Origin: a virus
Taxonomy: Duplodnaviria; Heunggongvirae; Uroviricota; Caudoviricetes
Length of the DNA: 34,397 nucleotides
Reading direction: 5' to 3' (one strand)
Virus record (IMG/VR): IMGVR_UViG_2541047966_000009
Shown here: piece by piece, positions 3,104 to 28,699 of the stretch
Layout of the letters: each line of letters starts with the position of its first letter
How positions within the stretch are numbered: position 1 is the first letter of the stretch
The notes under the pieces: generated by a model
Seen by the model: only the letters and a program-made list of their open reading frames with translations
What the model was told of the DNA's origin: nothing
Databases searched by the model: none
Made by a program: the position numbers and the translations under genes

Positions 3104-4254
3104 TTTTTCTTCTCCTTAATCACCGTCGATGTACTGCCATCCGGGTGATAAACCGTGAGTTTCTGAGTTTTTTGTTTTTTCCCTCTTGTGACTGGCCCCC
3201 GTGCCACTTCCAGCTCTGTGGTGTAGCCGCTGTTACGCTCAAACGCATGGCGGGCAGTGATTATCAGCCATGGACCGGATAACTGTCCAAAGCCCACCAG
3301 TTCAATTTTGTTGCCTGCTGTCAGTTGAGGCGTTCCCGTCAGCGTCAGGGAGCCGTTCTGCTGGTATTCGTTATGTCTGGCCAGTGCTGAATCCGCTTTA
3401 ATCCGGGCACTGTCCGGGTCGCTGACACGGCTGTTAACTTTAAGTGAGTCAGCGCTGGTAACCTTACCACCTTTGAGCTTTTTGTCGCTTTCACGGGTAC
3501 CACCATCAGCTTCGTAGACGATCAGTTTTTTACTGCTGCTTTTCTGGTGTTTTACCTTTGCAGATTTATAGACCCGGTTGATGGTGTCACGCAGGGAAAA
3601 GCGGGCCACATCCTGCGGTTTTAACTGCCTGACCGGCTCCTGACTGCGCAGTGTGGCCAGATGAGAAAAAATCAACTGGTCACTGACCACTTTCACTGCA
3701 TAACCATACTCGCTGGCCAGCCGGCGCAGAAAACCCACGTCGGTTTCAGCATACTGGGTCACCCGGTCGATTTTGATGGACTCAATGCTGCCCACCAGTT
3801 TCAGTCGGTGCTTTCTGGCAATCCGCCCCGCAACAGCTGCCAGCGTGGTGTTCTCAAAACCACGGCTGGATTTAGTCCGCAGAGCACTGTTAACCGAGGT
3901 GGCCACCCCACGGATAGCGACAACGGACGCGGGCGAACTCACTTCGATCTCGTCTATTGAGAATGTACCGCAGGACAGCAGTTTCTCGCCCTGATAACCC
4001 ATTTTCAGCGTCAGCGTGTCACCCTTGCCCGGATACCACTTATCCAGCCAGCGACCATCGGTGTCATCCAGCTCCACCTCAATGGTATCGGACTCATTTT
4101 TGATGTTATCGCTCCAGGTCACACGGGTGACATAAGGCGCGATATCAGAGGTGATATTTTTCTGCAGATACCACAGAGTGAACACCGGCGTCAGCACATC
4201 GCTGACGCCGGTTAACGCTGATACGTCTTGCGCAGTACTGTTTATCTCAGCCAT
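3100..4254 (-). CDS. tail/baseplate hub protein, P2 gpD / Mu gp44 (P)-like
   Basis: 384-aa ORF; size and synteny downstream of tape measure module. Confidence 0.65.
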   Translation of the reverse strand: MAEINSTAQDVSALTGVSDVLTPVFTLWYLQKNITSDIAPYVTRVTWSDNIKNESDTIEVELDDTDGRWLDKWYPGKGDTLTLKMGYQGEKLLSCGTFSIDEIEVSSPASVVAIRGVATSVNSALRTKSSRGFENTTLAAVAGRIARKHRLKLVGSIESIKIDRVTQYAETDVGFLRRLASEYGYAVKVVSDQLIFSHLATLRSQEPVRQLKPQDVARFSLRDTINRVYKSAKVKHQKSSSKKLIVYEADGGTRESDKKLKGGKVTSADSLKVNSRVSDPDSARIKADSALARHNEYQQNGSLTLTGTPQLTAGNKIELVGFGQLSGPWLIITARHAFERNSGYTTELEVARGPVTRGKKQKTQKLTVYHPDGSTSTVIKEKKK

Positions 4255-5338: not shown

Positions 5339-7803
5339 CAGCTGTACTCCTTACGTTGTTTCTGAGCCAGCAGACGCTCCAGCATTTTTTCCAGCTCATG
5401 CAGGCTCATATTCAGGGCACCAGTCAGCCCGGCAGGCGCTGCGGTTTCCTTACCATTGAGGAAAAACTGAGGATTAAAGCTGACCTGGATACCGCCAGAC
5501 GCTCCACCGCCAGTTGCCGTTGCACCACGGCCTGAATATCCGGCAGCCATGATTTTCGGCGACGGGATACGGGGAACATCCGGTGTCATTTCAGCGGCCA
5601 GGCGCTGCCCGGCCAGTGCAGCAAGCGGAGTGGTCCGTTGCAGGCCAATGGCGGCACCCTGCGCGATATTGTCACCAAAGCCCATAAACACGCGACTCGG
5701 TGAATGGATGCCCAGCTTTTCGCTGAACCAGTCACTGATGCTGTCACCCATTCCGGTTACGCTGGTTTTGAGTGACGCCCATTTGTTTCTGATGCCATTT
5801 ATCAACCCGTCAATAAGATGACCACCGAAGTCGGTGAATTTCGCCGGCAGATCAACGCCGAGATATTTCAGCGCAGCCGCAAAGGCTTTATAAAGCAGAC
5901 CAGCCGGAGACCAGTTAACCAGCAGTTTACCAATTCCCACGATGCCGCCGTTAAAGGCTTCCTGAATGTCAGCCCAGCGCTGTTTAAACCAGCTACTGAC
6001 TGCGCCCCAGTTGCGGTAGATAAGGTAAGCTGCTGCCGCGACGGCGGTGATAACGAGACCGATGGGATTCATCAGCAGCGCCCGGCCAATCCAGAGAACG
6101 GCACGCCCGGCGCTCATAATTCCGCGAACCAGCCCCCCTGAGAGCACACCACCCAGTGTTCTGGCTCCTCTGGCGACAGCACCAAAGCCTGTCACCAGCC
6201 AGCGGAGTTTACCGCCTTCCCCCAGTGCGAGCGTCAGACGAAGCCAGTTGGCCCGAAGTAAAACAGCATTTTTCCAGACGCTTACAAAGGGGGAAAGAAG
6301 GAGATTCAGCCCAAGCTTGAGACCGATAGTGGCCATCCTGAAAGCGAGTAATGCGCCCACAACCTTTATGGTGCTGCTGACGAGCTGCGGATTTGCCGCT
6401 ATCCATTTGCCAACACTGTCCATTAAAGGAATAAATGTTTCACCCAACTGGAGCAAAGCCGGACGCAAGGATTGCCCGATGCTGATAGCAGAATCATTAA
6501 AGCCGATCTGCATTCTGCGCCAGCGACCTTCAAGCGTATCATTCTGCTTTGCAGCATCCTTATCCAGGGTAGAAATTGCAGCCGGAGCATTCATTTCCTG
6601 CTTACTGGAAAGGTATTTATCCCAGCCCTGTCGCATTGACAGTAAATGGTTGACAGTCTGAATATCGGTAAAGACCTCAGCCAGACCAAATGACTCCATG
6701 AGTTTCTGCTGACCTTCCTGATCGCCTCTTGCTCCTGCAGCTTTCCATTGCTGCAAGAACGCTTTGCCTTTACTGTCGATAAAACGGTTGGCAATCATCA
6801 GTGAAGCTTCGTACTGCGAAAAACCCTGAGCGACGTAATTCTGCATTGACCCCTGGTAATCCACCCCGGCTTTAGCATATTTCTGGATGGTATCTCCGCG
6901 GCCCATTGCTGCCAGCCAGTTGGACATATTGGTGACCGCTTCCTCTGCAGAGCCACTACCTTTACCGACCTCCAGACTGGCAACAATCTGGGTAATCGCA
7001 TCTTTTCCATAAATACCACGAGCAGCGAAGGCTTTAGCCATACCGGGTAATGCTTTTGCCATATCCTTCAGCTCAAATGACCCAAGTTTGGCTCCTGTTG
7101 CCGCAATACCAAACGCCTGTTCAAGTTCTTTCGCATCAGTGATTCTGAGTGCATCGCTGAAGGCATAAGTCATTTTGGCAAGGTCGGTCATATCGGCTTT
7201 GGTTGCTGTAGCGGTCTTTCCAAGCATCTCTGCAAACGTTGCTGCCCGTTCGGGGGCCATACCATCAGCAACTAATTGTCCGACTCCCCCTAACAGAGAC
7301 TCCTGCAGTTGGTTAACCTTCAGCGAGGCCTGTCTGATAGCCTGGCCAATTGCACGTTCCTGTTTTGCATCCAGGTCTCCTGTGACACTGATATCCCGCA
7401 ACTGTGATTCAAACGAGGCATATTGTTTAACCGAGGCCATGACCGGTGCGCCCAGCGTTCTGCCAATAGCATAGGTTTCTGCACCCTGACCATAGAGCGC
7501 CAGGCGGTTAGCCTTCAACGCATCACCGGTGGCTGATACTGCTGACAGACGGCGCTGCTGACGTTCAATTTGCTCCATGGTGCGGCTTACCCGCAGCAAC
7601 TCGCTGTTGAGATGCTGCATCCGGGAAGAACCCAGTTGACCATAACGTTCTGTTGCCCGGGTTAAGGCATTCTGGCGTTCCTGCAGACGGCGGGAGGTAT
7701 CACCAAGGGAATCAAGGGCGCGTCGGGTGCCACTGACGGCTGAGCGGAAGCTGCTCCCGACAATGCCGCCAATAATGACGCCGACTGAAAATTCACTGGC
7801 CAC
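5338..7803 (-). CDS. tail tape measure protein
   Basis: 821-aa ORF, largest in tail module; Ala/Gly/Leu-rich with hydrophobic segments; GTG start preceded by GAGGA. Confidence 0.8.
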   Translation of the reverse strand: MASEFSVGVIIGGIVGSSFRSAVSGTRRALDSLGDTSRRLQERQNALTRATERYGQLGSSRMQHLNSELLRVSRTMEQIERQQRRLSAVSATGDALKANRLALYGQGAETYAIGRTLGAPVMASVKQYASFESQLRDISVTGDLDAKQERAIGQAIRQASLKVNQLQESLLGGVGQLVADGMAPERAATFAEMLGKTATATKADMTDLAKMTYAFSDALRITDAKELEQAFGIAATGAKLGSFELKDMAKALPGMAKAFAARGIYGKDAITQIVASLEVGKGSGSAEEAVTNMSNWLAAMGRGDTIQKYAKAGVDYQGSMQNYVAQGFSQYEASLMIANRFIDSKGKAFLQQWKAAGARGDQEGQQKLMESFGLAEVFTDIQTVNHLLSMRQGWDKYLSSKQEMNAPAAISTLDKDAAKQNDTLEGRWRRMQIGFNDSAISIGQSLRPALLQLGETFIPLMDSVGKWIAANPQLVSSTIKVVGALLAFRMATIGLKLGLNLLLSPFVSVWKNAVLLRANWLRLTLALGEGGKLRWLVTGFGAVARGARTLGGVLSGGLVRGIMSAGRAVLWIGRALLMNPIGLVITAVAAAAYLIYRNWGAVSSWFKQRWADIQEAFNGGIVGIGKLLVNWSPAGLLYKAFAAALKYLGVDLPAKFTDFGGHLIDGLINGIRNKWASLKTSVTGMGDSISDWFSEKLGIHSPSRVFMGFGDNIAQGAAIGLQRTTPLAALAGQRLAAEMTPDVPRIPSPKIMAAGYSGRGATATGGGASGGIQVSFNPQFFLNGKETAAPAGLTGALNMSLHELEKMLERLLAQKQRKEYS

Positions 7804-21685: not shown

Positions 21686-21932
21686 GTGTGTCTCCTCGTT
21701 TGGTGGAGACAGCATCACAAATGTGGCGGGATACGGATTTTAAACAGCGTTAATAGTGAAGATGTAAACGTGCACTGCATGATGGCTTTGAAAGAACGAC
21801 CAGCCCGGTACCCGAACACCGGGCTGGCCATCGCCCCACAGGAATGCGCTGTGAGCCGACCAAGGTTCAGTCAGTCTCGCGAGACCAGACTAGCCTGCCA
21901 TATTTTTTATAATTGTAAAAGGCTTACAGATT
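21686..21932. promoter_or_regulatory. divergent intergenic region: candidate late-operon promoter (leftward) and dam promoter (rightward)
   Basis: 247-bp non-coding gap between divergent holin and methyltransferase genes; contains perfect 10-bp inverted repeat CCAGCCCGGT-n8-ACCGGGCTGG at ~21800-21827 and AT-rich TTTTTTATAATTGTAAAAGG before dam. Confidence 0.4.
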
Positions 21933-22703
21933 ATGAAAATGCAGACATTACCCATCGTTCCATGGATTGGTGGCAAACGCCGCCTTGCAAAACACATCCT
22001 GCCGCTGTTTCCGGCGCATGAATGTTATGTGGAGCCGTTTTGTGGGGCAGCAGCGCTCTATTTTCTTAAGGTACCCGGCAAGATCGAAGTCATTAATGAT
22101 ATCAACGGTGAGCTGGTGAACCTGTATCGGGTGGTAAAACATCATCTGGAAGAATTTGTACGCCAGTTCAAATGGGCGCTGGTCAGCCGGCAGATCTACA
22201 AATGGCTGCAGATCACCCCGGAAGAAACACTGACGGATATCCAGCGTGCAGCACGGTTCTACTACCTTCAGAAGCAGGCGTTTGGGGGCAAGGTGGCGGA
22301 GCACAGCTTTGGTACCTCCACCATATCCCCGCCACGCTTCAACCTGCTGCGTATTGAAGAAGAACTGTCAGCGGCACACCTGCGGCTTTCCAGAACGGTC
22401 ATAGAACACATGGACTGGCAACAGTGCATAGAACGATATGATCGCCCGCATACGTTGTTCTACTGTGACCCTCCATACTGGGGAACGGAAGGTTATGGTG
22501 TGGAGTTCGGACTAGAAAATTATGATCATATGGCAGATTTAGCACGCAGGATCAAAGGGAAGATGATTATATCGGTGAACGATATCCCGGAAATGCGGCA
22601 GGCATTCAACGGTCTAAATATTCAGTCGGTTGATATCAGCTACAACCTCAAGATCACTGGCAAATCCAGTCGCAAGAAGGAACTCATTATCCTCAACTTT
22701 TGA
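21933..22703 (+). CDS. DNA N6-adenine methyltransferase, Dam-like, apparently orphan
   Basis: 256-aa ORF; SAM-binding motif EPFCGAAALYF near N-terminus and catalytic DPPY (FYCDPPYWGTEGYG) near C-terminus; no adjacent restriction endonuclease candidate. Confidence 0.8.
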   Translation: MKMQTLPIVPWIGGKRRLAKHILPLFPAHECYVEPFCGAAALYFLKVPGKIEVINDINGELVNLYRVVKHHLEEFVRQFKWALVSRQIYKWLQITPEETLTDIQRAARFYYLQKQAFGGKVAEHSFGTSTISPPRFNLLRIEEELSAAHLRLSRTVIEHMDWQQCIERYDRPHTLFYCDPPYWGTEGYGVEFGLENYDHMADLARRIKGKMIISVNDIPEMRQAFNGLNIQSVDISYNLKITGKSSRKKELIILNF

Positions 22704-23898
22704 CCGAATAGTAAGACTTCATGCAGTGAATCAAGTACTGCATGAAGTCAAGGGCTGGTTTTGTGTACCAAAAATAAACAGTGATAGCGGTAATAATTCC
22801 CATAACTAGAACACCACGTATAATCCAGAACGTACGTTTCTGCGTGTCTAGTCGCGCAGAAATACTGCTAAATACACCAGCCACGTCATCTTTAATGAAG
22901 GAATATTCCTTATTAATCTGTTTTTCTTTGTATTCAATTTCTTCGCCTAAGGCCTTTATAGATTGCATCTGGTTCGAAAGTGCCAGCCAGATTAACGTTG
23001 CAGCAAAAATGCATCCCAGAAGAATTATTGTGTTTGTTATCCCTTGGCCTGACCATTTCGTAGCCACTTTGAATTGGGTAGCTACGATAACAGAGGCAAC
23101 AGGAATGCCAAGTATATGGTTCTGGATATCTGAAAACGCTTTGTGGATTTTACCCATTTCTTCGACTTTTGCAGCACGCAGTTGATCCATTACTTTGTCA
23201 TAAGAGAATCCAGAAGAGTAGATACGATACCCTTTCAGAAACTTTTCATGCAGACGCTGAATATTGTCCAGTAAATAAGCGAATACTAGAGGTGAATCAA
23301 TTCCATCACTAACTGCTTGAATACTTTCAATCAGAATATCTAGCTTCTGATCCTTATGGGTATCATCATTGAAACAAGCTATAAGGTTATCAAGATACTC
23401 CCTTTGCAAATTTTGTACATTTTCTGCAGCGAAGTGCGGTAATAGCTTGATAACTTCTTTTTTCAGAAAAACTAACTGACAAGTTGAGTTATCAAAGTAG
23501 GCCGCGGCCTCTTTTAGCAGGTTAACGAACTCGAGAATCTTCCGGTAGTTGCTGATGAAAACGGGGATATCTTCATCATCATTACGAAATTTTGTTTCTA
23601 GGATGAAGTAATTAGCTGGCTCAAGGCACTGATGCTTTGGAGCATTTAGCAATTTTTCATGGGTGGAAAACACAAGTCCCAGTCCACTCCGTGGTGACGT
23701 CACACGTAGGATGATCGTGTTACCTGGAGCGATAGTGCCTGTATCAATAGAAAGACCATATTCACGAGGATCATCAAGCAAAGTATCAACCAGATCACAA
23801 TCGGACTGATCTAAGAGCAACAGCGAACCGACACGAAACCCCTCTTGGAATTCCATACGACGATACAGAGCTGTCAGCATCTCAAATGAAATCGCCAC
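22693..23898 (-). CDS. membrane protein of unknown function (large N-terminal soluble domain, two C-terminal TM helices); candidate effector
   Basis: 401-aa ORF, AT-rich; GTG start 2 nt after NdpA-like stop (coupled), internal ATG 18 nt later; hydrophobic ITNTIILLGCIFAATLIWLAL and TFWIIRGVLVMGIITAITVYFWY near C-terminus; no recognisable catalytic motif. Confidence 0.6.
   Translation of the reverse strand: MAISFEMLTALYRRMEFQEGFRVGSLLLLDQSDCDLVDTLLDDPREYGLSIDTGTIAPGNTIILRVTSPRSGLGLVFSTHEKLLNAPKHQCLEPANYFILETKFRNDDEDIPVFISNYRKILEFVNLLKEAAAYFDNSTCQLVFLKKEVIKLLPHFAAENVQNLQREYLDNLIACFNDDTHKDQKLDILIESIQAVSDGIDSPLVFAYLLDNIQRLHEKFLKGYRIYSSGFSYDKVMDQLRAAKVEEMGKIHKAFSDIQNHILGIPVASVIVATQFKVATKWSGQGITNTIILLGCIFAATLIWLALSNQMQSIKALGEEIEYKEKQINKEYSFIKDDVAGVFSSISARLDTQKRTFWIIRGVLVMGIITAITVYFWYTKPALDFMQYLIHCMKSYYSVKS
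22715..22749. other. perfect 13-bp inverted repeat (hairpin) at the convergent dam / membrane-protein gene ends
   Basis: GACTTCATGCAGT-gaatcaagt-ACTGCATGAAGTC, starting ~12 nt after the dam stop and overlapping the last codons of the minus-strand 401-aa gene; no adjacent U-tract. Confidence 0.4.
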
Positions 23899-23900
23899 GA

Positions 23901-24908
23901 TTAAACCTCAGTCATCCACATTTCCCTAAATTCTTCAGGTACATTACGTAGGGTGATAATATTTGTTTCCGGATCATAATCAATATAGCCTTCAGTTTTC
24001 CCTTCCCGGTCAAACTTAAGTTCCCAATATTTAGACTTGCCTTTAAAAGATACCAGAGCCCGAATGACTCGACCATCAGGAACGAAGCCATCCGATAACT
24101 CCAACTCTTCAGCAGCAAGTTTACCAGATAACTCCTCGGGAGCCTGGGGCCAAATGGCATTAACAAGGGTTTCAAGACTAAGTGGTTCACCAGCCTTACT
24201 TAGTGCATGTAAGTGTTCAAACGCATTCTTAAGAAATGCATCTTTTTCAGCGCCGTCAAGTCCTTTCTCTGCCGCAAATGCTTTTAAAACGTCACGTAAC
24301 TTTTCAGACTCTCGTTTGGCGATTAAGACATCATTACAGCCTAGGAACTGTTTAAAATAGTTTGAAACATTACCTTGCCCCTTAAGAAAACTGATATAGC
24401 GCTCTGCGCCACTTTCCCACGCGGTTAAGTCAATGCGCCCAGCCATACGCAGCTTAGCAATATCAAGATAGGTACTATCTTGGATGTTAAAATCATCTGT
24501 GACAGTGGACCCAATGGTAGCGCTTACAATAGCTATCAACAGGTGTTCATTGTGTCCTATCACGATATTTGCAAAAAGAACATAACCACCAGTAGCCATG
24601 TTTTCTCGCTGAGAACGTTCCGTCAGGTGATGCATCATTCGGCAGGAACTTTGGTAGAAATCATCAACACCTTCGAGAAAGTCCCCAGCCATTCGTTCCA
24701 TAGGATAGTTATCCGTATCGCCTTCAAAATAGCCATAACCTTTACCTGTGCGTCCTGCATATTTTGCACAAATATCGTTTATAAGGCGCTGAGAGGCTTC
24801 AGTAACTAGACCTTCTTCAGGACTCAATCTCTCAGAAGCGTCTCCATTTTGTTGTTTGTCTAAAATGTGAACTACAACGTGTTTAACTTCAATGGTCTGC
24901 TCAGACAT
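23901..24908 (-). CDS. divergent NdpA/YejK-family nucleoid-associated protein homologue
   Basis: 335-aa ORF (same length as E. coli YejK); recalled family similarity in ...GGYVLFANIV..., ...STYLDIAKLRMAGRIDLTAWESGAERYISFLKGQGNVSNYFKQFLG... and C-terminal ...YDPETNIITLRNVPEEFRE; SD AAGGTGG 8 nt upstream; AT-rich. Confidence 0.6.
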   Translation of the reverse strand: MSEQTIEVKHVVVHILDKQQNGDASERLSPEEGLVTEASQRLINDICAKYAGRTGKGYGYFEGDTDNYPMERMAGDFLEGVDDFYQSSCRMMHHLTERSQRENMATGGYVLFANIVIGHNEHLLIAIVSATIGSTVTDDFNIQDSTYLDIAKLRMAGRIDLTAWESGAERYISFLKGQGNVSNYFKQFLGCNDVLIAKRESEKLRDVLKAFAAEKGLDGAEKDAFLKNAFEHLHALSKAGEPLSLETLVNAIWPQAPEELSGKLAAEELELSDGFVPDGRVIRALVSFKGKSKYWELKFDREGKTEGYIDYDPETNIITLRNVPEEFREMWMTEV

Positions 24909-24978
24909 TGGCTATCCACCTTATTTTTTATTGCTTAATGGCAAATAATTTCTGCTATATGTTCTCGTTAGGAACACA

Positions 24979-25386
24979 TTAACCCACATTTTTTAACCGC
25001 TCAATCGTTGCGGATAATTCCTTCAGTTGTTTTTCCATCTCAATCACACGCTGTTTTTCTTCAGCGCCTCGCATGAGATCTCGCCGAACCTCAGGATCTA
25101 ACTGGTTTAGAAGTTCAAGCATTTTAAGGTCTGACGGGCTGAATTGATGTTGTGTTGGTACAGCAACAATTTCTTTAGATGGAATATGTTCTTTACCGGT
25201 AAGTAGCCAATCGATCGATACACCCAAATGGGCACTTAGCGCAACAAGAGCCTCTGCGTTTGGTTCTCTCTCTCCACGCAAATAGTTTTGAAGTGAGCGA
25301 TATGGAATTTTTGATAAGTCAGATAATGCCTTTATTGTCATGCCATTAGCATCCATCACTTCACGCAATCTCTCTTTTGTACTCAT
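24979..25386 (-). CDS. prophage repressor, XRE-family HTH
   Basis: Start at ATG MSTKERLREVMDANGMTIKALSDLSKIPYRSLQNYLRGEREPNAEALVALSAHLGVSIDWLL (HTH at N-terminus), coiled-coil C-terminus; divergent from Ner-like gene; ORF-track TTG start at 25482 unlikely. Confidence 0.7.
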   Translation of the reverse strand: MSTKERLREVMDANGMTIKALSDLSKIPYRSLQNYLRGEREPNAEALVALSAHLGVSIDWLLTGKEHIPSKEIVAVPTQHQFSPSDLKMLELLNQLDPEVRRDLMRGAEEKQRVIEMEKQLKELSATIERLKNVG

Positions 25387-25402
25387 TTGAACATATCTCA
25401 AT

Positions 25403-25430
25403 TTGACACACTCATTTGGGTGTGTACAAT
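25403..25430 (+). promoter_or_regulatory. candidate sigma70 early promoter with overlapping operator-like inverted repeat
   Basis: TTGACA-16 nt-TACAAT about 40 nt upstream of the Ner-like start; inverted repeat ACACAC-n8-GTGTGT (~25406-25425) overlaps spacer and -10. Confidence 0.5.
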
Positions 25431-25468
25431 AGACCCAATAGAGTACATCATAACCTAACAGGAACACG

Positions 25469-25699
25469 GTGCATATGAACAAACAACAAGTTCGGGCACG
25501 GCTGGTTGAACGAGGCAGTAGCTTGCGCCAGTTCGCGCTTAACGCGGGCTATGAACCACGAACAGTCACCCAGGCAGTCAGTCGCTGGGCTGGTAAAAGT
25601 GAACTACCTCGCGGTCGTTTGACTTATCGGATTTTGCGAGATCTATCGGTTGCAATAGGTAAAGAAGTTACCCCCGGTATCCTTAAGGAGGCGTCATGA
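25469..25699 (+). CDS. ner: Ner-like DNA-binding regulator (Mu Ner/Nlp family)
   Basis: 76-aa ORF; ...RARLVERGSSLRQFALNAGYEPRTVTQAVSRWAG... resembles Ner-family HTH; first gene of rightward early operon; GTG start with AGGA 6 nt upstream (ATG 2 codons later). Confidence 0.65.
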   Translation: MHMNKQQVRARLVERGSSLRQFALNAGYEPRTVTQAVSRWAGKSELPRGRLTYRILRDLSVAIGKEVTPGILKEAS

Positions 25700-26929: not shown

Positions 26930-28699
26930 ATGAATGCTGCCCTGACTGAACGACTGGTTTATGTCGCCCGCGCGGCACGTGACGCGGGGCATGGTAAACG
27001 CGGTGCAATATACGACGCTGCCTGTGCTGAACTTGGCATGTCCCGCGCCACTCTGCTGCGCAGGCTGAAGGAGGTCTCTGTGACTGATAAACGCAAAAAA
27101 CGCGCCGATGCCGGGCGCAGCGCCCTGACCCGCGACGAAGCCGCGCTGATATCTGCCACACTGCGTGAGGCCACCCGCAAGAACGGTAAGCGTCTCTATT
27201 CCATCGCGGATGCAGTGGAAACCCTGCGGGCTAACGGCTTTATCTCCGCAGGCAGAACAGATGAAACCACCGGTGAGTTTTTCCCGTTGTCCGAAGATGC
27301 CATCAGCCGAGCCCTGCGTAACTATGGCCTGCACCCGGAACAACTGGATGCCCCTGCACCACATACTGAAGTGGCCAGTCTGCATCCCAATCATGTCTGG
27401 CAGATTGATGCCTCGCTCTGCACGCTTTACTACCTGAGTAATGGACACAAAGGACTGCAGGTGATGGACAGCGCGAAGTTCTACAAGAACAAGCCCGCTA
27501 ACCTTGCCCGTATCGCCAGTGACCGCGTGTGGAGTTACGAGATTACCGACCATGCCAGCGGCTGGATTTACGTTGAGTATGTGACGGGTGCGGAATCCGG
27601 TGAGAACCTGTGTTCTGTGCTTATCAACGCCATGCAGGAGCGTGGCGGCGCAGACGTGCTGCACGGCGTGCCGAAAATACTCTATCTCGACCCCGGCTCG
27701 GCAAACACCGCGGGTATGACGAAAAACATGTGCCGCTCACTGGGCATCGACCTGATAGCACACAAGCCGCATAACGCCCGCGCCACCGGACAGGTGGAAA
27801 AGGCGCGTGACATTATCGAACGCAAGCTGGAGCCGGGTCTGAAGTTCCGGCCGGTTCACAGTCTGGAAGAACTCAACGCGCTGGCCGCGAAATGGCGCAG
27901 CCACTTTAACGCCACGGCTGTTCACAGCCGCCACGGTAAAACCCGCACGGATATCTGGCTGAAGATTACTGCTGAGCAGCTGAAAAAAGCGCCTTCCGTT
28001 GAGGTATGCCGTGAACTGGCTGTGGCGACACCAGAACTCCGCAAAGTCACGCCAAAACTTCGTGTCTCGTTCCGGGGCACTGAATTTGACGTATCAACGG
28101 TACCGGGCGTACTGGTCGGTGAAAAACTGATGATTACCCGTAACCCGTGGCGCAGCGATGTGGCACAGGTGGTTCTGACCGGTGAGGACGGCCACGAGGC
28201 GTTCTTCCTGGTCGAAGAGGTCAGAAAGAACGAGTTTGGCTTTGCTGAAAGCGCGGCGGTATTTGGCGAAAGTTACAAAGCCCTGCCGGAAACCCCGGCG
28301 CAGATGGCGGCAAAAGAAACCGAAGCGCTGGTCACCGGTACAGACAACGCCGCAGATGCAGCTGCCGCACGCAAGGCGAAGGCGCTGCCGTTCGGCGGGC
28401 GGCTTGACCCATATAAACATATTGATGACGCCACACTTCCGGCCTGTATACCGAAGCGAGGTCAGGCCTCTGACGTACGCGGGCTGCGCACTGAACAACG
28501 TCCCATGACTCATGTGGAGGCCGCGAAAGCCCTGCGCGATAAGTTCAGCGCCGACGGCCTTACCTGGACGCCGGAACATTACCGCCAGTTAACGGCACAG
28601 TATCCGGACGGCGTACCGGAAGCCGCACTGGATGAAGTCATGGCCACGCTGACCACGCCGGCCCGCAGCAGCGTTATCAGCATTGTTAACGGCAACTGA
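26930..28699 (+). CDS. DDE transposase, Mu A-like
   Basis: 589-aa ORF; candidate DDE triad in ...HVWQIDAS..., ...ILYLDPGSANTAG..., ...ATGQVEKARDIIE...; directly upstream of AAA+ B-like gene. Confidence 0.8.
   Translation: MNAALTERLVYVARAARDAGHGKRGAIYDAACAELGMSRATLLRRLKEVSVTDKRKKRADAGRSALTRDEAALISATLREATRKNGKRLYSIADAVETLRANGFISAGRTDETTGEFFPLSEDAISRALRNYGLHPEQLDAPAPHTEVASLHPNHVWQIDASLCTLYYLSNGHKGLQVMDSAKFYKNKPANLARIASDRVWSYEITDHASGWIYVEYVTGAESGENLCSVLINAMQERGGADVLHGVPKILYLDPGSANTAGMTKNMCRSLGIDLIAHKPHNARATGQVEKARDIIERKLEPGLKFRPVHSLEELNALAAKWRSHFNATAVHSRHGKTRTDIWLKITAEQLKKAPSVEVCRELAVATPELRKVTPKLRVSFRGTEFDVSTVPGVLVGEKLMITRNPWRSDVAQVVLTGEDGHEAFFLVEEVRKNEFGFAESAAVFGESYKALPETPAQMAAKETEALVTGTDNAADAAAARKAKALPFGGRLDPYKHIDDATLPACIPKRGQASDVRGLRTEQRPMTHVEAAKALRDKFSADGLTWTPEHYRQLTAQYPDGVPEAALDEVMATLTTPARSSVISIVNGN

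Follow-up and report, generated by a model that had tools for sequence, protein, structure and literature searches.

An accessory gene pair behind the repressor of a Mu-like prophage

The DNA analysed here (the window) is the 34,397-nt virus record IMGVR_UViG_2541047966_000009 of IMG/VR, which gene calls, Pfam and RefSeq identify as a transposable BcepMu-like prophage of Escherichia coli. Directly behind its repressor gene lie two minus-strand genes, here called gene A and gene B, which encode a protein of the NA37/YejK type of nucleoid-associated protein (NAP) and a membrane protein, respectively. The two genes form a sharply bounded cassette that is exchanged for other cargo in sister prophages, and by sequence comparison both proteins are remote homologues of DS-1, a validated anti-phage system. 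Judging from this homology and from the behaviour of related systems, we consider it likely that the pair is a two-gene abortive-infection anti-phage cassette, of the class that joins a NAP sensor to a membrane effector; we are less sure of the details.

Gene A (23901..24908, minus strand; 335 aa, ATG start) was identified from the open reading frame (ORF) list, Pfam and RefSeq, and gene B (22693..23898, minus strand; 401 aa, GTG start) from the ORF list, phrog_5023 and NCBIfam. The TAA stop codon of gene A (23901-23903) lies 2 nt before the GTG of gene B, a spacing that suggests translational coupling. By reading of the sequence, the Shine-Dalgarno sequence of gene B, GAGG (23906..23909, minus strand), falls within the last codons of gene A, and that of gene A itself, AAGGTGG (24916..24922, minus strand), lies 7 nt before the ATG. 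The junction is likewise 2 nt in DS-1 and in the homologous loci L007 and L010, and other homologues overlap by 8-14 nt. A sequence-only reading of this DNA had described a co-directional, coupled minus-strand pair of 335 and 401 aa after the repressor, and the ORF positions and the 2-nt gap agree with that description. The region studied is 100% identical to that of E. coli MS20655, a strain in which torS is interrupted by the prophage. The identical coding sequences of that strain are labelled in RefSeq as a "nucleoid-associated protein" (WP_021576853.1, gene A) and a "hypothetical protein" (WP_001007984.1, gene B), and a literature search on these accessions found nothing.

The late and lysis genes of the window extend leftward, and those for a DDE transposase (26930-28699, plus strand), an ExeA-type ATPase, Gam and Mor rightward, with the gene for a helix-turn-helix (HTH) repressor at the point of divergence. 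This repressor (24979..25386, minus strand; 135 aa, HTH_3/CI-type; Pfam HTH_3 3.4e-12 and Phage_CI_repr 3e-6; RefSeq WP_000104669.1) heads the leftward immunity transcript and is part of the conserved backbone. Its maximal ORF (24979-25482, 167 aa, TTG start) crosses the divergent early-promoter region and contains a TTGACA-16-TACAAT site on the plus strand (25403-25430); the repressor is most likely the 135-aa protein with the RefSeq start at 25386. A 70-nt spacer (24909..24978, minus strand), described by terminator and promoter scans, RNA folding and a homology breakpoint, separates the repressor stop from the start of gene A. Its first 20 nt (24959-24978) belong to the backbone, and the remaining 50 nt, beyond the breakpoint at 24959, form the leader of the cassette.

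On the far side, the cargo slot is bounded by a backbone gene for a Dam-type DNA adenine methyltransferase (21933..22703, plus strand; Pfam MethyltransfD12 7e-28, TIGR00571 dam), which shares 86% nucleotide identity with a sister prophage up to position 22684. The sequence-only reading had placed the pair between the repressor and Dam. That order stands, with the correction that Dam lies on the plus strand and converges with gene B, the two overlapping by 11 bp (22693-22703). The last 19 nt of the Dam gene (22685-22703) fall within cassette-specific DNA, so that the C-terminus of Dam is supplied by the cassette.

The GC content of gene A is 0.425 (0.345 at third codon positions, GC3) and that of gene B 0.405 (GC3 0.391), against a window mean of 0.543 and a value of 0.585 (GC3 0.636) for the transposase gene. 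The pair had been described as visibly more AT-rich than the prophage, which is true against these two references but not against the repressor gene, whose GC content of 0.417 makes it as AT-rich as the pair; GC alone therefore cannot delimit the cargo. In the spacer that separates the repressor gene from gene A, the scans found neither a terminator (spacer fold z = -0.42) nor a gene A promoter above background. One promoter-like site in the 3′-end of the repressor gene (9/12; 25043-25014) was dismissed as being at background frequency. A motif, GTGTTCCT, shared between the region upstream of the repressor and that just past its stop has three matches and is not significant, with 6 of 100 shuffles also reaching three. 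No intrinsic terminator was found for either Dam or gene B by the terminator scan, a repeat scan of the immunity region gave nothing convincing, and the Rfam and tRNA scans of the window were both empty.

Cargo exchange and linkage of the pair across mobile elements

The boundaries of the cassette were set by blastn against the sister prophage that E. coli CFSAN051542 carries (locus L002). Homology stops at 22684 and resumes at 24959, 20 nt past the repressor stop, and from there rightward the two prophages share 82% nucleotide identity. The 2274 bp between these points (22685..24958, minus strand) hold exactly gene A and gene B, and are replaced in CFSAN051542 by 615 bp of unrelated DNA containing a gene for a 177-aa lipoprotein. 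The lineage of this prophage is present in 63 of 5426 complete E. coli genomes, with the NAP pair in 19, the lipoprotein in about 20, and a pair consisting of a 297-aa protein and a 145-aa membrane protein in about 24. The 19 pair-bearing copies lie at 19 distinct chromosomal coordinates, which fits Mu-like random transposition.

The same slot was compared across species in prophages with a ~93% identical transposase. A repressor-anchored scan of species-representative genomes gave six true sister prophages, the other ~70 loci being unrelated HTH proteins that were ignored. The Mixta tenebrionis prophage carries the same pair at 97% (A) and 94% (B) identity, those of Apirhabdus, Pantoea stewartii and Pseudocitrobacter carry a lipoprotein, that of Limnobaculum has a pair of 297 and 153 aa, and in Lelliottia the slot is empty. 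All versions of the cargo are AT-rich (GC 0.40-0.44), and the alternative cargoes sit as tightly behind the repressor as the NAP pair does. The sequence-only reading had proposed that homologous prophages be checked for different cargo at this position, and had taken conservation of both genes as core genes of all related prophages to speak against an accessory role. The slot holds the pair, the lipoprotein, the 297+145-aa pair or nothing, and such conservation is excluded.

A core phage function is ruled out by the same comparison, as the pair is replaced or missing in sister prophages. A core lytic-cycle role in a Mu-like phage, for instance as an aid to transposition or lysis, would suit the location of the pair between the early (transposase) and the lysis and late modules. 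It is nonetheless barely credible, and effectively refuted by sisters that lack the pair with a transposase ~93% identical; lambdoid phages and a non-phage island also contain the pair, whose base composition does not match the backbone.

The two alternative cargoes may themselves serve in exclusion or defence. The lipoprotein (L002:6252-6785 in CFSAN051542, 6447-6980 in both L011 and L012, and L015:6375-6806) is 143-177 aa long and AT-rich, with a signal peptide and a lipobox of the form ...LSGC/LAGC, and occurs in ~20 E. coli genomes and several further genera. It had no match in Pfam, PADLOC or NCBIfam, and is plausibly a superinfection-exclusion protein. The third cargo is an overlapping gene pair in the immunity operon of ~24 E. 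coli genomes, represented by strain Ecol_448 (L095:4004-4897 and 3607-4044; WP_016238310.1 and WP_016238311.1) and also present in Limnobaculum (L014:6387-7280 and 7216-7677). It encodes a 297-aa soluble protein and a multi-helix membrane protein of 145-153 aa, neither of which had a match in the same three collections, and is a candidate defence or exclusion system.

Homologues of gene B form 166 clusters at 90% identity in a word-seeded search. A profile search of 1.84 billion representatives returned 1287 proteins, each standing for a cluster at 50% identity, with E <= 1e-3; 399 of them reached E <= 1e-30, and nearly all are 380-430 aa long. All genomic contexts examined have an NA37 gene on the same strand immediately ahead of the gene B homologue. 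They include lambdoid prophages of Salmonella and Morganella, where the pair separates the antiterminator Q from the holin, a non-phage island of Paraburkholderia, where it lies beside an Mrr-type nuclease, the Sinorhizobium phage phi2LM21 and an Acinetobacter prophage. In IMG/VR, the NA37 ORF is immediately upstream in 37 of 40 loci. Of the three exceptions, one is truncated by a contig end, and the other two are matched in part and, with their true starts, would adjoin the NA37 ORF. About 16 of the 40 loci are on Mu-like backbones and the rest on other phages. Measured against the window pair, the A and B homologues lose identity in parallel (97/94, 67/52, 47/37, 44/38, 37/32 and 24/22%), which fits co-inheritance. 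The two genes move together between mobile elements that are unrelated to one another.

This linkage bears on a regulatory or "stealth" explanation, in which AT-rich DNA of the prophage or the host would be coated or silenced by gene A and tethered to the membrane by gene B, the pair acting in prophage maintenance or in tuning of the host transcriptome. Gene A does encode a complete YejK-like DNA-binding protein in an AT-rich region beside the repressor, and NAPs of mobile elements are well documented, among them the plasmid-borne, NdpA-like Pnd of pCAR1. Against such a role, gene A is strictly tied to a conserved membrane partner across unrelated elements, the pair is missing from most sister prophages that are otherwise the same phage, and the homologous DS-1 pair blocks phages when cloned alone in E. 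coli MG1655. We regard the explanation as very unlikely.

Further observations concern other parts of the prophage. A second variable slot lies on the other side of Dam, between holin and Dam (21759-21788), and is empty in the window (30 bp). In sister prophages (L002:4323-5289, L011:7733-10942 and L095:1274-2596), it holds either three small hypothetical genes or a gene for a DUF2441 protein, to which an IS21-type insertion sequence is added in some cases. At the right end of the prophage in MS20655, torS is annotated as frameshifted or partial (L001:31746-34650). In the same strain, the left prophage end has a Gin-like recombinase gene (L091:2523-3095) next to tail-fibre genes that are duplicated or partial. 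This arrangement, which lies to the left of the window or just at its edge, suggests that an invertible host-range segment exists here, as it does in Mu.

The NA37 protein and its membrane partner

Gene A matches Pfam NA37 over residues 12-327, that is, over its full length (E 6e-81), and phrog_3767 with an E-value of 8e-117. Residues 4-330 align to residues 4-329 of the YejK structure 9be2_A (E 6.7e-30). Its score against the NCBIfam YejK model is 186.5 bits, below the equivalog cutoff of 341, and gene A is therefore not an orthologue of the housekeeping YejK. The chromosomal E. coli YejK/NdpA shares this domain over an equal length; gene A differs from it in being AT-rich, prophage-borne and always paired with a membrane partner, as well as in this sub-cutoff score. 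Gene A also matches NF053868 of NCBIfam release 20, DS1_1_antiphage ("nucleoid-associated anti-phage protein"), with 1.6e-17 and 63.5 bits, and aligns with DS-1A at 23% identity by BLASTP (E 7e-9). We propose that it acts as the sensor of the pair.

Gene B belongs to phrog_5023 (E 1.9e-142). A Pfam scan with E-values up to 1 gave nothing significant, and gene B has no sequence relative in the Protein Data Bank (PDB). It does match NCBIfam NF053869, DS1_2_antiphage (3e-21, 75.9 bits), as do all 43 of the 43 aligned members of its family. Searches with hidden Markov models had been suggested by the sequence-only reading, and the matches to NA37 and to the two DS-1 models came from these; PADLOC gave no call. 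Its weak Kiwa KwaA match to gene B (E 8e-5) was rejected as an identification, being shared by only 2 of the 43 family members, and is probably compositional, lying in the transmembrane (TM) region.

An AlphaFold2 model of gene B, built on 43 homologues (mean predicted local distance difference test score 81), has an N-terminal alpha/beta domain (residues 1 to ~165), a helical region, a long helix (230-274) and two further helices (285-331 and 333-378). The model places a large domain in the cytoplasm and next to nothing in the periplasm. By its predicted secondary structure, the cytoplasmic alpha/beta and helical domain comprises residues 1-222 (23233..23898, minus strand) and is mildly acidic: residues 1-262 have an isoelectric point of 5.1, with 39 acidic and 28 basic residues and a net charge of about -11, and DS-1B is similar. 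Residues 223-277 (23068..23232, minus strand) form a long juxtamembrane helix, which the alignment identifies as the best-conserved stretch of the family, with the motif GY..F.SGFSYDK...AKVEEMGKIHK.FSDIQN.ILGIPVA. The invariant residues are G223, Y224, F231, S232, Y233, K235, K250, D257, I258, Q259, P266, A268, T274 and K277, and part of the motif is common to DS-1B.

The two C-terminal TM helices that the sequence-only reading had noticed in the 401-aa protein are recovered by hydrophobicity and lie inside the modelled helices. TM helix 1 spans residues ~286-309 (22972..23043, minus strand), with Kyte-Doolittle 19-residue windows of up to 2.33, within the AlphaFold2 helix 285-331. TM helix 2 spans residues ~357-378 (22765..22830, minus strand), with windows of 1.9-1.95, within the helix 333-378. 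The model had no significant structural relative in PDB or BFVD.

The predicted topology also bears on entry-level superinfection exclusion, in which gene B would block DNA injection, the NAP would bind incoming DNA and the cell would survive. Position in an immunity operon is typical of sie/imm-type genes, one alternative cargo of the slot is a lipoprotein, a common type of exclusion protein, and hydrophobicity makes gene B an inner-membrane protein. In the model, however, the mass of gene B is cytoplasmic rather than periplasmic, and the related type II PANGU system, described below, is abortive and is triggered after entry by the EndoII activity of phage T4. Exclusion at entry is in our view quite unlikely.

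Likely mode of action and relation to known systems

To the sequence-only reading, no defence system based on an NdpA-like protein was known. Two recent studies overturn this point, one describing DS-1 (PMC13092281) and the other PANGU (bioRxiv 10.64898/2026.04.06.716658). DS-1 is a two-gene anti-phage system of E. coli from the DefensePredictor study (bioRxiv, January 2025; Science, April 2026; PMC13092281). It consists of DS-1A (WP_000355468.1, 391 aa, with a YejK domain) and, after a 2-nt gap, DS-1B (WP_000150292.1, 404 aa). Cloned in MG1655, it gave -log efficiencies of plating of 7.6 for Bas1, 2.7 for Bas26, 1.7 for Bas3 and T3, 1.0 for T5 and 0.9 for T7 (PMC13092281).

With the DS-1A and DS-1B sequences of Table S8 of that study, gene B aligns with DS-1B by BLASTP over residues 74-355 at 23% identity (E 6e-10). 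Comparison of the two protein families by hhalign gave a probability of 99.1% (E 9e-19) over 352 columns, nearly the full length. The two systems are alike in having the NAP gene first, in the 2-nt spacing and in size (391 and 404 aa in DS-1, 335 and 401 aa here). Like gene B, DS-1B has a soluble N-terminal part, a juxtamembrane helix with the pattern "Y..F/Y..FS..K" and C-terminal hydrophobic helices. In Klebsiella, a close relative of DS-1 is likewise placed in a moron slot, here the one that separates Q from the holin in a lambdoid prophage. On the other hand, DS-1A has an N-terminal extension of ~40 residues, CxxC...CxxC and zinc-ribbon-like, whereas the NA37 domain of gene A starts at residue 12, and DS-1 has a measured phage phenotype whereas the window pair is known from its sequence. 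Scores below the NCBIfam cutoffs indicate that the pair belongs to a sister family and is not DS-1 itself. Word-seeded searches from either side did not list the other family (among the best 120 of 166 gene B matches and all 69 DS-1-side matches).

PANGU systems pair YejK-like NAP sensors with effectors (bioRxiv 10.64898/2026.04.06.716658, April 2026). Type II PANGU, from uropathogenic E. coli (UPEC), consists of Pag2A and Pag2B, the latter with an acidic "DMK" domain at its N-terminus and a TM domain at its C-terminus; both genes are required and the phenotype is abortive infection (10.64898/2026.04.06.716658). Phage T4 escapes the system by mutation of denA, which encodes endonuclease II. 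Upon infection, a Pag2A-GFP fusion (GFP, green fluorescent protein) departs the nucleoid, and Pag2A binds the N-domain of Pag2B with a dissociation constant (KD) of 19 nM, while the mode of action of Pag2B is stated as unknown (10.64898/2026.04.06.716658). Neither gene alone nor the pair is toxic, and the NAP acts as an activator (10.64898/2026.04.06.716658).

These last findings also speak against addiction of a toxin-antitoxin kind, with gene B as a membrane toxin and gene A as its antidote, the prophage being stabilised as a result. The tightly coupled two-gene operon and the potentially toxic nature of a membrane protein would suit that idea. In PANGU, however, the NAP is not an antitoxin, and a transposable prophage has no need for plasmid-style addiction, and we consider this role highly improbable. 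Strict pairing, cassette behaviour and a validated homologue together disfavour addiction, entry exclusion and the stealth NAP alike.

Abortive infection by the pair could proceed as follows. In the lysogen, the two genes would be read through from the repressor promoter and their translation coupled, as the layout suggests, and gene A, given its full-length homology to YejK, would sit on the host nucleoid. When a superinfecting phage degrades or remodels the host DNA, gene A may be released and bind the mildly acidic cytoplasmic N-domain of gene B, both steps being modelled on PANGU. Residues 1-222 of gene B are accordingly proposed, by analogy, as a candidate NAP-binding module and counterpart of the "DMK" domain of Pag2B. 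The juxtamembrane helix and the two-helix hairpin of gene B might then switch to an active, probably oligomeric, ion-conducting state, and the membrane potential would collapse and the infection be aborted.

The identities of the two genes, the boundaries of the cassette, the strict A-B linkage, the behaviour as prophage cargo and the remote homology to DS-1 are established here, and a defence phenotype would follow from the literature on relatives. Several points weigh against a defence cassette of this kind. The pair shares just 18-23% identity with DS-1, and its NCBIfam scores of 63.5 bits (gene A) and 75.9 bits (gene B) fall well short of the equivalog cutoffs of 330 and 315 bits, respectively. 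PADLOC-DB v2 recognises neither protein apart from the weak KwaA match. The pair could belong to the PANGU family, the DS-1 family or a third family. DS-1 and PANGU-Ecu differ in the phages they act on, so the trigger may differ between families. The acidity of the gene B N-domain is only mild (net -11 over 262 residues), so that any "DNA mimicry" would be hypothetical. Because no structural relative was found, a pore or channel activity of gene B is conjectural, and permeabilisation of the membrane would be hypothetical for Pag2B too. Expression in the lysogen is predicted from the gene layout.

The new points are of modest weight: DS-1 has a large sister family that defence annotators miss, this family is placed in the immunity operon of Mu-like prophages, and the slot has a set of alternative cargoes. 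A bolder possibility, which we consider unlikely, is that the pair is no mere copy of DS-1 or type II PANGU but a separate lineage. Its effector would then be a new kind of membrane channel, gated by the NAP, with a long-helix hairpin like that of CorA or ClyA next to the conserved juxtamembrane helix. Deployed from a Mu-like immunity operon, it would kill cells whose chromosome a competitor destroys and stay silent during the replicative transposition of its own prophage. If true, silence while its own prophage shreds the chromosome would imply built-in discrimination of self from non-self or shut-off at induction.

As a likely defence cassette, the pair would extend systems that use a nucleoid protein as an infection sensor to a large unannotated family, currently labelled "hypothetical" or "phage-related membrane protein" and missed by both PADLOC v2 and RefSeq. 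It is typical prophage cargo, placed in the repressor operon in Mu-like phages and in the Q-holin moron slot in lambdoid phages. The same prophage with the lipoprotein, with the 297+145-aa pair or with nothing in the slot provides natural cassette-swap controls. Prediction of host range for phage therapy in E. coli is also concerned, with the cassette in 19 of 5426 complete genomes.

In phage lambda, the cI-rexA-rexB operon encodes a soluble sensor and a membrane protein, co-transcribed just downstream of the repressor, that abort infections by other phages and so protect the lysogen. The window pair lies likewise directly downstream of its repressor and in the same orientation, with a 70-nt gap and no terminator, and the likeness to RexAB is one of functional analogy. 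RexB differs from gene B in having four TM helices and no large cytoplasmic domain, and RexA is not an NA37 protein. Neither gene A nor gene B gave a Rex-type match in the Pfam scan (E up to 1), where NA37 was the sole match of gene A, or in PADLOC, and both libraries presumably contain Rex models. The sequence-only reading had proposed a lysogen-side accessory module, located as rexAB is and made up of a sensor that binds the nucleoid and an effector in the membrane. This proposal gains support from the swappable cassette, its mobility as a unit and the homology to DS-1. Type II PANGU differs from the window pair in that its loci were chosen by linkage to defence islands, whereas the window pair sits in a prophage immunity operon, and in that the acidity of the gene B N-domain is modest. 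It resembles the pair in architecture, as a bicistronic unit of a YejK-like NAP and an effector with a soluble N-domain and a C-terminal TM part, and by this analogy offers the best available model for how the pair may work.

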